From positions 36,828,001-36,892,000 of the forward strand of contig OZ024759.1 in NCBI GenBank assembly GCA_964016885.1: a stretch of 64,000 nucleotides of DNA. Reading direction: 5' to 3'. The DNA is from Eledone cirrhosa. Lineage: Eukaryota. Below, one piece after another: positions 3,206-55,325 of this stretch. The translations under genes were made by a program, and so were the position numbers. Below the pieces are notes generated by a model, which saw nothing but the letters and a program-made list of their open reading frames with translations, was not told the origin of the DNA and did no database searches. Every line of letters begins with the position of its first letter. Positions within the stretch are counted from its first letter, which is position 1.

Positions 3206-3455
3206 CATTGTTGCTTCTAACTTCGATTTTGTACTGAATTACGTGTAGTTAACTATATGTCTAGTCAATTTCTACAGGCTAGAATGAATATTAGGTAAAT
3301 ATCATATGGCTGATCATCGCGGAAAAGAAGATATATCATTTGTCTATTATTTCTTCATGAGTACATTTTAAACTAATAGCCTCGTTTAAATGTGGTTGAT
3401 TTATACTGAATGGGAGAGGAAATACTGTATATATTTTATCTAATGATTCTTTGGA

Positions 3456-4238: not shown

Positions 4239-4461
4239 GCATATATATATATATGCATATATATATGCATATATATATATATGCATATATATTATATATA
4301 TATATATATGCATATATATATTATATATATATATATGCATATATATTATATATATATATATGCATATATATTATATATATATATATGCATATATATATAC
4401 ATATATATATATACATATATATATATATGTATGCATATATTATATATATATATATATATAC

Positions 4462-11450: not shown

Positions 11451-11454
<4 letters not shown>

Positions 11455-11634
11455 TGAGATTCTACAGGACTAGAACTGTTTCATTCTTTAGAAATCATCA
11501 GGGATTCCTGATGATTTCTAAAGAATGAAACAGTTCTAGTCCTGTAGAATCTCATCTATATTAAAACTTTTATACTCTGCTATGTATTGAGTACCTTACT
11601 TACTGTGGTTACCTCCGATTCAACCCGGAATAAC

Positions 11635-11635
<1 letters not shown>
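11451..11635 (+). mobile_element. Fold-back hammerhead element, family C
   Basis: Perfect palindrome ~11451-11558 centred on GATT (11503-11506), then a tail with TTGAGTAC; embedded in (TA)n; near-identical inverted copy at 38285-38478. Confidence 0.85.
11501..11553 (+). ncRNA. Type I hammerhead ribozyme motif
   Basis: GGGATTC-CTGATGA-TTTCT AA AGAAT-GAAA-CAG TTCTAGTC CTG-TA-GAATCTC. Confidence 0.8.
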
Positions 11636-13696: not shown

Positions 13697-14440
13697 GGGG
13701 GGGTGACTTTGTGTATTATAGAGAGGGAGAGAAAAACATATGAGACTGGACTTTCCATATATATATATATATATATATATACAGACACACACGCACACAC
13801 ATATATGTATATATATTGGCGGGAATGTGTCTAAGATTCTTTCCGTATTACATATGTGATTGGGTGAAATCCCTTGTGTAATAAGAAGAAAGCTTAGTTG
13901 GAAAACTATTTCACTTGTGTACCAATATGTCTATGTTTCTGTGTATGTACATGTGTGTGTGTGTGTGTGCATAATGTTTGTGTATACATATGTATATGTG
14001 TTTGGCTATTTTGGGCCGTGTATATTTTTTTATTTGTGGGCTGGAAGGTCGGTGTGGGGGGTGAGGTGGGGTGATCATTCATTTGTATTCTGAGAGAGTA
14101 AATATACGTATTTTTATCACCATTATTATTGTTATTATTATTAGTATTATTATTAAGGTGCATATATGTTTCCCCTCCATGTCATATATACACATATATA
14201 TATATATATATATATAGTGTGTGTGTGTGAAAGGCAAATAGAAATAACAACACAATCGGTACAGTATATGGAAGGAATGTATTAGTTTAACGCTTGAAAT
14301 AGTAGGAAGAGTGCCATAACTTTTCGGATGATAGTCCTTTATCATTCATCAGAAGATAGAATGAGAAATTAGAAAGATTGGAGGGACAAGCAGGGCGGAA
14401 TCGGAAAATTTGTTTTTAGAGAAAACTAGCAGGTTTAAAG

Positions 14441-14798
14441 ATGGTGAATGGGTGCTACACGAGAACGCTGAGGATGGCTCTGAACATTAATCAGTACACA
14501 CTGAGGATGAAGTACTCAGAGCTGTACGGGAGCCTCCCCAAAGTCAGCTCAAAAGTAACACAGGGGAGGCTGAGGTTAGCTGGACATGCTCACCGACATC
14601 CAGAGTTGACACTGCACTCAGTGCTCCTGTGGGAGCCCCTGCATAGACACACTGTAAGAGGGAGACCAAGGTTAACATATGTTGATGCCCTAAGGACAGA
14701 CACTGGTCTGTTGGAGACACAGGACATGGCAGCGATAATGAAGGACAGAGACCGCTGGAGAGAACTCGTCCATGGATCTCTGGAATGTTACCCGCCCT
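14441..14798 (+). pseudogene. 3' end of an RTE/RTEX-like LINE ORF2
   Basis: RLRLAGHAHRHPE..LLWEP..RGRPRLTYVD..DRDRWR, a typical post-RT C-terminus; (TA)n tail; second copy at 37994-38267. Confidence 0.8.
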
Positions 14799-15099
14799 AT
14801 ATATATATATATATATATATATGAGCTAAGGTTGCTTGGATACGTCCATAGGCGGTATGACGGTTGAGCACTCTATGGTGCTTCGGAGCAGAGTATGACA
14901 ATATGGAAAACGATGAATCAGTGATGCAGCGAACAGCTGAGGTGTGATCTGTTTGTGGATCGAACCTGACTCTGGATTCGCAAGTTCCTCAGATACGTCT
15001 AGTGACCTGGAAGCTGTTCGCCGGAGAAACAATTGTAATACGTAATAAATTGTGTTCCGAAGCATCACTAATTCTTCGGTTTCTATATTATATGTATAC

Positions 15100-29537: not shown

Positions 29538-29980
29538 TAAATATACAATATATTAACAAATGGAAACTATATTTATAAAACCATATTTATTTCATTATAC
29601 ATATTTCAAGGGCCACCAGAGCAAACTATGGTGCACTTTCATCAGATAAAATATAATATAGATTAGTTTTATAAATAAATATTGCCATACCCTTAAAAAA
29701 TGCAACCATTCTGGTTGGAATCTCCAGAATGGTTGCATTTTTTAAGGGTATGTCAATATTTATTTATAAAACTAACCTATATTATATTTTATCTGATGAA
29801 AGTGCACCATATTTTGCTCTGGTGGCCCTTGAAATATGTATAATGAAATAAATATGGTTTTATAAATATAGTTTCCATTTGTTAATATATTGTATATTTA
29901 CTCCAATAATTTGTTGAGTGCTTTATATCTGTTATAAAAATACTTTGCTTATTGTATACCAACAAATTAAATATAACCTC

Positions 29981-31017: not shown

Positions 31018-31195
31018 GTCCCGGGTTAAATCGGGGGTAACCACAGTAAATAAAGTACTCAATACATTTGTAGAGTTTATACAAAATATAATATAGAAAT
31101 GGTTTCTACAGGACTAGAACTGTTTCATTCGAAGGAAATCGTCAAGAAAGCCTTCGAATGAAACAGTTCTAGTCCTGTAGAAGCCATTTCAATAT
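31018..31195 (-). mobile_element. Family C variant with TTGACGA-core hammerhead and inverted arm
   Basis: GAAACAGTTCTAGTCCTGTAGAA on both strands; tail homologous to 11580-11630. Confidence 0.75.
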
Positions 31196-37719: not shown

Positions 37720-37950
37720 ATAGGGTGGTGAATTGGCAGTATCGGTAGAGGGTGGGACGCCGTGCTTTGCAGCATAGAGTTACGGCCCTCTATGATCTGA
37801 GTTCAAATCCTGCCGAGGTTAACTTTGCCTTTCATCCTTACAGGGTCGACAAAATAAAGTACCAGTCACGCCCTGGGGTCGATTCCATCGACCCCCCCCC
37901 CCCCCCCGTAAAAAATTGCTGGCCTTGTGCCTATATAAAAAAGCATTATA
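37720..37950 (+). mobile_element. SINE family 1, full length
   Basis: TGGCAGTATCGG A box, GAGTTCAAATCC B box. Confidence 0.9.
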
Positions 37951-38284: not shown

Positions 38285-38475
38285 CGTTATTCCGGGTTGA
38301 ATCGGAGGTAACCACAGTAAGTAAGGTACTCAATACATAGCAGAGTATAAAAGTTTTAATATATATGAGATTCTACAGGACTAGAACTGTTTCATTCTTT
38401 AGAAATCATCAGGAATCCCTGATGATTTCTAAAGAATGAAACAGTTCTAGTCCTGTAGAATCTCATCTATATTAA

Positions 38476-38478
<3 letters not shown>
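38285..38478 (-). mobile_element. Family C fold-back hammerhead element (HHR 38367-38419, -)
   Basis: Nearly exact reverse complement of 11451-11635. Confidence 0.88.
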
Positions 38479-38520
<42 letters not shown>

Positions 38521-38526
<6 letters not shown>

Positions 38527-38682
38527 AGATAACTTCCTCAGGAATAGAACTGTCTTATATGCAAGCAATCACCAGGAATGAAACAGTTCTAGTCCTGTAG
38601 AAGTCATTTCTATATTACAATAAAGATATCTATATCCTTCTCCAGTATTGAGTACCTCATTTCACTGCGGTCACCTCCCGAC
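38521..38682 (+). mobile_element. Older, diverged family C fold-back
   Basis: GAAACAGTTCTAGTCCTGTAGAAG plus TTGAGTACC tail; decayed inverted arm. Confidence 0.65.
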
Positions 38683-52190: not shown

Positions 52191-52272
52191 TGTTCTAGTC
52201 CTGTAGAAGCCATTTCTATATTAAATATTTATACTCTCTGCTATGTATTGAGTACCTTACTTACTGTGGTAT
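52191..52272 (+). mobile_element. 5'-truncated family C fragment
   Basis: GTTCTAGTCCTGTAGAAG..CTATGTATTGAGTACCTTACTTACTGTGGT. Confidence 0.75.
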
Positions 52273-53056: not shown

Positions 53057-53269
53057 TGTATGTATATGTGTATGAGTGGTTTTTCTACAATTGGTACAAT
53101 ATATTTATATATTTATATATGCCATGCTGTATGGATGTGTGGATGGAATTGTGTTTGTATGTATATATGTGTGTGTATATGTATGTATGCATATGTATGT
53201 GTTTATATATGTATGTAATATGTATGCTTGTCTATGTGTATATATATTTGTTTGTATATATTTGTATGT

Positions 53270-55325
53270 GCGTATCTTAGTCTTAGTTCCTCCAGACCCT
53301 TGTGGAACATTGGGCGACGAGCATCCTCCACTTGATCCTGTCACTGGCGGCCCTTCTAGCACCTCTCCAGGTAATTCCCATCTCCCGCAGGTCCTCCCTG
53401 ATAGATTTTTGTGTCTATTGTGACAATCTTCCAGTATCATTTTGTTAACCAAAAGCTGATCCTTACAGCCATAGCCTCGTTTACACCCTTTCTGCTCATT
53501 AGGAAATAGGTCTTTTGTTATCAGGTGGTCATATGTATATACAGTTAGGACTGATGTTAAAATGTTATACATTGTGGTCAAGCAAGTTATCGGTCTATAA
53601 TTTTTGGGATTGTTTGTCTCATCATTCTTCGGAAGCAGGAATGTAATGCCGTTAACTAGCCATGATGGTATCTTTTCTGGCTCCTTAACTATTTCATTGT
53701 AAAGTTGGGCTAACAGCTCATGAGACTCTGTGAAGGCATTTATCCAAAAATGTGGTATTTTGTCTTTTCCTGGGGATTTCCATTTGCTGGTTTTTCTAAA
53801 AGCCAAACGCAACTGTTCAACTGTTATATTTTCCCATATTTGTTCCTCAAGGTGAGCTGTATCTTTCATTTGTTTGTCTATCGATGGGGCATGTATATTA
53901 TGAACTTTTTCTTCGGCCCAGATCTTTTCCCAGAATTCTTGCACTTCCTCCTTGGGTGGTATTGATTTAGCAGTTATGTTGACTTGCCAATTTTTCTGTA
54001 GAAGTTCCTTATAGAATCTAGATCGTTTTTCAAAGCGCCTTATACGAGCAGCTTTCTCCGACACTTTTTGCTTGGTTATTTCTATCAGCATGTCTATGTC
54101 ACTTGTTGAGTTTATACTGCATTTTCTTTTCAATTTTCTAAGTTTAGTTTGTTTAACATGTTCACCTACTTTGTAGTTTGTTAAAATTTCTATGTCAGAT
54201 CGGAGAAGGTTTATTTGGCGATTGATGTTCTCTTGCCAAGTAGATTTCTTGTTGGAATTCCTTTGTTTATTCATTTTCACTCCACATAAGTGAGTGGTGA
54301 CTTTAGCCGATGCATAATAGAGATGATTTAAATCAGTAATGTTTAGTTTGTTTGTGATGATAATGTTTTTGAGAATTATGTTAGTCTTGTGTATTATCTT
54401 TTGGTTTTGTTTGGAGTTCTGGATCTTAGGGAGGGTGTCTCGTTCCCCCATGTCAGATTCTTTCATTTTCATCCATTCGATCATAATTTCATCCTTCAAG
54501 TTGGCAAGTTCATTCTCATTCATTTCTTTATCATTTACGATCTCATTGTTTTCATTTTGAGTTTCATCTTGAGCATGCACTCTCTCCACTTTTTCGATCC
54601 TTTCTTTAATTTGTTCTGTTGTCAGTGATTCCGCCCCAACCCTGGGATTCGAAGTGTTACAATTTACCTCGTTTTCACTGACACATGTTTCATTTTCCCT
54701 TCGCTGACTTTGTGCTAATAGCTTGATCTGATCAATTTCTATATCAGTTAGTAACTTTTTTTTAACAATATTTCTTCGTATATTGACTAGTTTGTTACTG
54801 TCAATATAGCTTCTGTTTTCGGGATGTTTCTTTTTTCAGTTGATATATGTCTGTTCTGTATTCGATGTATTTGATGGGTAGTACATGGCAGTGTAGAAAA
54901 CCTCAAGGACTTCTTTATTATCTTCCCTTGACCATTTTTCTCTCTTTTTCTTTGGATTGCTTGGTGGTGAGCATGGAGGTCCAACAGTAGGAGTATTCCG
55001 GTTATGGGAGGTCTCCAGCTCTGAAGTGATGGGAACGTTTGAACCATTAGCTGATTTTTCGACCCCAGTCTGGTTCCTCTCTGAGGGACGCGGCCCTTTT
55101 TTACCCGGGTGACGGCCGATCCGGTATGAGATTTTATCATTTGACATTTACTTTATTTTGTCGCGTTTTATCCTTATCCGCCAAGGGGTAATCATTTCGT
55201 GTTACCATTTCTAAGACGAGTGTCAACCAGACTAGAGGCGTCGTCCTCCCCTAGAGACACGGCTATTCCCCGCCGGCCGCCATCCCGGTATTTCTTGGTC
55301 ACGGGTTTTCTTTTTTGTTGTTTTT
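53270..55325 (-). mobile_element. R4/Dong-like non-LTR retrotransposon, truncated within RT
   Basis: WKSPGKDKI..FW, NYRPITCLTTMYNILT, EQKGC..GCKDQLLVNKMIL..KNLS; N-terminal REKWSREDNKEV; homology ends at ~53400, before the catalytic motifs. Confidence 0.82.

Follow-up and report, generated by a model that had tools for sequence, protein, structure and literature searches.

Head-to-head insertions with a predicted ribozyme in the genome of Eledone cirrhosa and their probable derivation from a Penelope-like retrotransposon

Results

Two palindromic insertions on opposite strands

The stretch of Eledone cirrhosa DNA analysed here (64,000 nucleotides of contig OZ024759.1, positions 36,828,001 to 36,892,000; hereafter the window) contains two near-identical palindromic units on opposite strands, copy A (+; Table 1) and copy B, whose matching part lies at 38285-38469 (-). 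They differ at one of 185 bases (unit position 106, C/A). The original prediction, made from the letters alone, had described this pair correctly: the fold-back junction and the end of the tail are identical in the two copies, and a complete stem I is confined to one arm, 7 bp being possible in the long arm and 1 bp in the short arm. Both copies sit in (TA)n and share one layout: a short inverted arm is followed by a 4-base loop, and the long arm beyond it is made up of a hammerhead motif and about 70 further bases. The palindrome arms are perfect over 55 bp in copy A, where the outer bases overlap the TA repeat, and extend over 62 bp with one mismatch in copy B, the short arm of which continues to 38478. 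Positions in the element are counted from the first loop base (+1, window 11503). The two G that precede the loop of copy A would represent either untemplated 5' bases or the end of the short arm, that is, a 2-bp overlap.

Table 1. Insertions of the family and their parts in the window
Feature	Position	Strand	Basis or remark
Copy A, whole head-to-head mini-insertion in (TA)n	11451..11635	+	sequence
Copy A, short arm	11451..11502	-	element +5 to about +59; hammerhead core without full stem I, no tail
Copy A, putative type I hammerhead	11501..11553	+	core 11508-11514 and 11527-11530
Copy A, 4-base palindrome loop	11503..11506	+	element +1 to +4
Copy A, tail	11569..11635	+	stretch between the family's short end and long end
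Older-subfamily palindrome, one long and one short arm, different junction	31021..31195	-	sequence
Copy B, long arm (putative hammerhead and tail)	38285..38417	-	sequence
Copy B, short arm	38418..38479	+	ends at element +66
Older decayed relative, adjoins copy B in the same TA tract	38521..38678	+	sequence
Single-arm truncated relative, element +31 to +107	52192..52270	+	sequence

The hammerhead call relies on the core and stems as read from the letters, an Rfam scan of the window having given no match. Stem I would pair 11501-11507 with 11547-11553 (7 bp), stem II has 3 bp and stem III 4 bp with a palindromic loop; the core is intact and the cut is predicted after 11546. This fold (-7.7) is not the lowest-energy fold of the long arm (-11.1), and RNA of the whole unit would fold as one long hairpin burying the ribozyme (-101 kcal/mol). 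The fold of a 'parent' copy was uninformative, that copy having a changed stem I.

The original prediction had named a junction unique to these two copies, with flanks showing a local segmental duplication, as grounds for its refutation; the junction is not peculiar to copies A and B. Its 28 bases recur at 172 places in the genome, against none for the reversed control, so the likeness of the two copies is not due to chance. The immediate flanks of copy A, copy B and a third copy 165 kb away are unrelated, which argues against the segmental duplication that the same prediction had considered. A census of the exact junction on contigs C1-C6 yielded 74 places, or 72 once a duplicate had been dropped in each of L056 and L059. 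Within these copies, 55 of 2969 sites compared between arms show a difference, and the arms are non-identical in 26 of the 72; such private differences indicate real, ageing palindromes and not an assembly fold-back. Assembly is difficult where a perfect palindrome lies in TA repeats, and local duplication accounts for some close pairs elsewhere (L056, L057). However, the independent divergence of the arms, a strict short/long rule for their ends (see below) and the unrelated flanks of the window copies make an artefact of assembly or library, or a local duplication, exceedingly improbable. Junction copies paired about 2.15 kb apart were considered as a master tandem and rejected, as they are the duplicated TA-rich blocks of L056 and L057. 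All 11 sampled words of the unit were present in three runs of one sample, possibly the assembly's own; no RNA run figured among the matches listed. Contigs and reads over the copy B region formed a whole-family pile-up with no spanning piece, and provide no test of the locus.

A large family with young and old members

The 31-base ribozyme core occurs at no fewer than 16,398 places (arms) in this 3.0-Gb genome, and the ribozyme start with other upstream bases at 3208, under a pattern that omits one of the two parent subfamilies. The 40 best matches to the unit are 99-100% identical. The 80-base tail alone, used as a query in a DNA search, gave no match, which is uninformative. The window pair are ordinary members, a small sample of a very large family, and theirs is one of many junctions that recur. 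That the family is very young, as originally proposed, fits its many near-identical copies, and the repeated waves suggested in the same place fit the diverged relatives of the same design. In the window, more diverged copies lie at 31021-31182, 38576-38678 and 52192-52270 (Table 1).

With an even spread of the 172 copies, we calculate by hand about 0.3 64-kb windows holding two. The region around copies A and B is dense, with 9 young places in 264 kb, among them 7 compact palindromes, 3 of which have the exact junction. These three, two of them in the window, lie within 165 kb and share polarity and haplotype class (a class of 7 of the 72 census copies). Their likeness exceeds what independent formation easily gives and is not fully explained; a nearby common source or local conversion could be involved.

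Ribozyme matches show a plus-strand excess of about 2,000-2,500 (9189 versus 7209; 6426 versus 3870), which hints that a single variant forms a large tandem array at some place in the genome. At L054:700-1500 (minus strand), ribozyme, tail and ORF start form a 222-bp head-to-tail tandem, a retrozyme-like derivative of the same element. Retrozymes are tandem repeats, unlike the 185-bp unit; a non-LTR retrozyme was rejected for the window copies, which are single head-to-head pairs and not head-to-tail tandem units. A MITE or foldback DNA transposon was likewise rejected, the arms being unequal, the outer ends variable and the tail found on either arm. L068 holds an array of at least 12 units of about 1.07 kb, each with promoter region, ribozyme and tail. 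Frames of several other Penelope-like families lie near copies at L051, L053, L056, L105 and L112, often in the same TA tracts.

Other repeats share the window. Minimal motifs resembling a hammerhead, from two or more other families, were seen at 1475, 2123, 2977, 24196, 29645, 29793, 36832 and 41237; the one at 29645 (-) is paired head-to-head with that at 29793 (+) in a palindrome whose spacer is longer. LINE-type reverse transcriptase frames are present as fragments at 53105-54835 (-) and 14420-14824 (+), and a high-copy short repeat at 37770-37900 is presumably an octopod SINE.

A parent element with Hydra-clade motifs

The 185-bp unit reads as the ribozyme end (pLTR hammerhead and tail) of a Penelope-like retrotransposon (PLE). 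The original prediction had described a ribozyme unit and had not named such a retrotransposon. The window's own ORF list contains no ORF of this element; the parent was read elsewhere, from 186 places at which the tail is not directly followed by TA. We read 20 of these, whose tail continues in one recurring sequence, and in 17 the start of an ORF is visible; at L101-L117 the tail runs on into this ORF. One locus, L106, has the arrangement pLTR-ORF-pLTR with a hammerhead motif in the pLTR (ribozyme at 871, ORF from 1046, ribozyme and tail at 4371). Among the matches listed, no ribozyme pair 5-6 kb apart flanks an ORF of this family.

The single ORF, pieced together from broken natural copies, shows motifs of RT YxDD type followed by motifs of GIY type at the C-terminal side. 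Pfam gave GIY-YIG with an E-value of 0.0008, under its cut-off, in one of three ORF pieces and nothing in the other two, and Atlas look-alikes of the ORF carry PF26215, RVT_1 and GIY-YIG. None of the 17 starts read leads into an intact ORF, the longest open stretch being 583 aa, and no active parent was seen among them. RWR or RWK is present in all seven loci read for motifs, DKT in six, CxxC in five and the CxCX5C linker in four. A CxH in the endonuclease, missed by the script's pattern, was seen by eye; a CCHH motif was not seen by eye in these sequences, read unaligned to reference PLE endonucleases.

PLEs typically carry inverted 5' copies and tails (PMC8557442). The RWK-type motif, DKT, CxCX5C linker, CxxC and CxH are shared with the C-terminal EN+ PLEs of the Hydra clade (Craig et al., 2021, PMC8557442), as are a hammerhead in the pLTR, insertion into (TA)n, an inverted 5'-truncated copy and a tail at one end. 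Here, too, insertions sit in (TA)n, where a target-site duplication is unreadable because both insertion ends fall in the repeat, and the tail at one end with an inverted 5'-truncated copy was found in 32 of 33 pairs, each short plus long. The tail is about 70 bp long, versus 30-40 in the Hydra clade (PMC8557442). Two further figures to be set against that clade are the distance from ORF start to 3' ribozyme, about 3.5 kb in L102 with microsatellites included, and the at least 16,398 ribozyme arms. Judged by its motifs, the parent element would be a new family of a known kind.

The predicted ribozyme also has known counterparts. Hammerheads in pLTRs have been described (PMC4209133), and those of PLEs and of non-LTR retrozymes are likewise of type I, with a weak helix and a palindromic loop III; opposite-strand pairs 100-700 bp apart have been noted as well (PMC4209133, PMC7229834, bioRxiv 10.64898/2026.07.22.740005).

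Evidence for one template and for two syntheses

The census copies are not uniform. Of the 72, 56 carry the tail on the loop-bearing arm and 16 on the other, the outer ends vary, and 24 polarity-haplotype classes can be told apart. In 67 of these copies (five with other letters at +20 being dropped), the variant T at +20 occurs in 29 long arms, against 30-36% of all genomic arms: 0.43 versus 0.36 (p 0.20) with the suspected tandem array subtracted, or versus 0.30 (p 0.016) unsubtracted. With both tail polarities, 24 classes and a +20 frequency like that of the family, the copies do not go back to one master. Of the two options offered by the original prediction, 'moves as a unit' is not supported. 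A non-autonomous mobile palindrome, with one or a few masters whose transcripts are inserted again in full, might explain the 172 exact junctions, the near-identity of the best matches and the common haplotype and polarity of the three local copies. Nevertheless, the same mixture of polarities, classes, family-like variants and outer ends speaks against it, as does the unit itself, which has no TATA box and whose RNA hairpin would bury the ribozyme, and we regard this explanation as decidedly improbable.

The two arms of one copy are closely connected. They agree at +20 in 64 of 67 copies and disagree in three, versus 33 disagreements expected for random pairs, which indicates that both arms derive from one template. 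In addition, 43 changes are mirrored in both arms; 58 differences confined to one arm, together with the three copies that disagree at +20, count against the reading proposed below.

The ends of the arms were read in a second sample, the first 100 core matches on C1, of which 99 were covered (the place near 41.167 Mb is missing). Both samples consist of the first places listed on C1 or C1-C6, chosen by exact patterns. Of 33 head-to-head pairs with a close junction, 32 combine one short and one long end, the former at +51 to +86 (alignments overrun into TA) and the latter at +130 to +138. In 14 of the 33, the short arm reaches further 5' and the long arm further 3', even with overlaps charged against the short arm; L238 and L241, which are among these, look like mutual duplicates. 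Such non-nested arms cannot be copies of one another, so two syntheses are needed.

A common 5' end at a putative start site

Compact junctions respect a sharp limit: none of 83 places passes position -2 (counted by eye among 100 listed of 1778). The commonest has a 3-base loop (23 of 83), and the junction of the window copies accounts for 6 of 83 among the matches listed. Upstream of the A at -1, 62 of 71 parent-type arms, from both subfamilies, have a TATA box whose first base lies 30, 32 or 33 bases away; some tandem copies enter this tally more than once. The bases around this A fit the initiator consensus.

Where the element is joined to TA at this A, the preceding base is G in 64 cases, C, the parent's base, in 20, A in 15 and T in one (100 listed of 143, by eye; the TA-joint patterns miss in-phase TA joints). 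Outside the one context in which stem I could supply the G, it is still found in 23 of 32. Within that context, 8 of 14 fetched G copies are short-ended, so the extra G is not a remnant of the short arm. The 5' form of the window copies, with two G before +1, occurs at 13 of 46 places; in 11 of these the join to TA is direct, an inverted arm being absent, and 10 of the 13 have the tail, the same bias as in the census (56/72). At L314-L320, G at -2 is followed by T or C where the A at -1 would stand, which would fit frequent misreading of the first RNA base beside the extra G; L318 belongs to a different family.

We infer from these letters that a transcription start site lies at -1/+1 and that the extra G reflects a cap; untemplated C addition by the reverse transcriptase is an alternative that would leave the same base. 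The proposal that the palindrome is 'produced at a stereotyped site (fold-back at stem I)' is supported in its first half. Stem I as the cause is not favoured: the site is better explained by the 5' end of the RNA, which coincides with the 5' strand of stem I.

The ribozyme itself, or a splice site, could be thought to define the limit. The intron of Drosophila virilis Penelope ends at helix I (PMC4209133), and in both subfamilies a T-rich tract and CAG stand just before +2. However, no recurrent upstream exon is joined at the site, and the A and G at -1/+1, which would be lost in splicing, are still present at the ends. TA joints starting at the predicted cut number 12, versus 143 and 46 at the start site (the patterns are not exactly matched). 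It is therefore very unlikely that the hot spot arises from 3' splicing or from a stop at stem I linked to the ribozyme, and cleaved RNA would be at most a minor template. The single-arm copies at L291-L300 start exactly at the predicted cut and may be a minor class from cleaved RNA or a result of TA microhomology; 11 of the 12 joints at this site end in TA, which plain microhomology fits too.

Self-priming deserves more attention. One strand, cDNA or antisense RNA (PMC3846280), would fold back at the site, be extended to a hairpin and be integrated. This would readily give arms that mirror each other's variants, as in the 43 mirrored changes, and a loop-bearing arm that is the long one in 56 of 72 copies; for the commonest junction, a hairpin with a 3-base loop, one templated base pair would be enough, and some junctions carry small fold-back inserts. 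Yet fold-back of a cDNA cannot yield the 16 of 72 copies of opposite polarity or the 14 of 33 non-nested pairs, and an antisense template does not account for extra-G 5' ends where a sense TATA box and initiator lie, or for the presence of such ends in single-arm copies that abut TA. As a general explanation self-priming is thus unlikely, although it may be the source of some junctions.

Discussion

We think it probable that the 185-bp unit is a promoterless head-to-head insertion whose junction is remade at each insertion, by two cDNAs joined at the 5' end of a sense RNA. The parent element, paired ends, both polarities, shared template, 5' wall and extra G demonstrated above form the basis of this reading; to these we add the suppositions that the site is transcribed, that a cap supplies the G, that the element's protein carries out twin priming and that the products are joined where they overlap by 2 bp. 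In L1 twin priming, both target strands prime cDNA on one RNA. There the outcome is an inversion without duplication, whereas here both cDNAs would copy the same stretch.

The RNA would start at the 5' edge of the ribozyme (-1/+1) and would likely be capped. The element's protein would cut (TA)n on both strands, and one target 3' end would prime near +59-66, the other near +131-138, on one sense RNA. With priming sites so near the RNA start, both cDNAs would be tiny; they would run off the RNA 5' end and be joined head-to-head through 1-2 paired bases. Two extra bases, once copied into cDNA, could pair with +5/+6 of the partner cDNA and give the exact junction observed, and joining through such a 2-bp overlap may explain why this junction recurs. 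Templates with upstream sequence would give the long-armed pairs seen alongside. The product is likely a dead end, as it has no TATA box and its RNA would fold into one hairpin.

Biochemical work on PAc Poseidon in vitro bears directly on these steps. Two internal RT start sites bound the tail, both target strands are cut and extended, targets are AT-rich, and RNA that has not been cleaved serves as the chief template (Frangieh et al., 2024, PMC11167929). Pairing of a short with a long end is the trace expected from two such start sites, and cleaved RNA appears to be at most a minor template here as well. By contrast, no difference in start site between strands was found in vitro (PMC11167929), whereas 32 of our 33 pairs have one short and one long end; this strict pairing has no shown cause, which counts against our reading. 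A word search of the available text of PMC11167929 found no treatment of inverted or palindromic insertions.

Penelopes of the rotifer Adineta vaga also form head-to-head palindromic junctions, with a putative TATA/initiator, and the palindromes were put down to antisense self-priming, other models being left open (Arkhipova et al., 2013, PMC3846280). Copies are few there, as against thousands here, and in the present family the non-nested arms and the extra G point instead to two cDNAs on sense RNA. A TATA box also distinguishes this family from D. virilis Penelope, whose internal promoter is TATA-less (PMC2377424). No account of twin priming or of cap-derived bases in PLEs was found in the literature searched, subscription journals lying outside its scope.

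The element itself is ordinary; its interest lies in the mechanistic evidence that counts can provide. The origin of the inverted repeats and tails of PLEs is named as unresolved in PMC3846280 and PMC8557442, and the insertions described here are tiny, young and numerous enough to be counted, so that the models become separable: by one template for both arms, by arms of which neither is consistently copied from its partner, and by a common, apparently promoter-defined 5' end. The family also yields exact predictions, namely start sites near +59-66 and +131-138 and an RNA start at -1/+1.

In a more general form, to which we incline only slightly, PLEs would integrate by asymmetric twin priming, of which the thousands of copies in this genome would be a natural record. 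Each half of the enzyme would use its own start site on a single capped sense RNA and its own target strand, and their products would be joined at the cap. If this is true, the tail, the inverted pLTR and the junction palindrome would fall under one mechanism, and the antisense self-priming proposal would be overturned. Single-arm copies lying behind a TA tract might, in addition, regain a promoter and serve as SINE-like sources.
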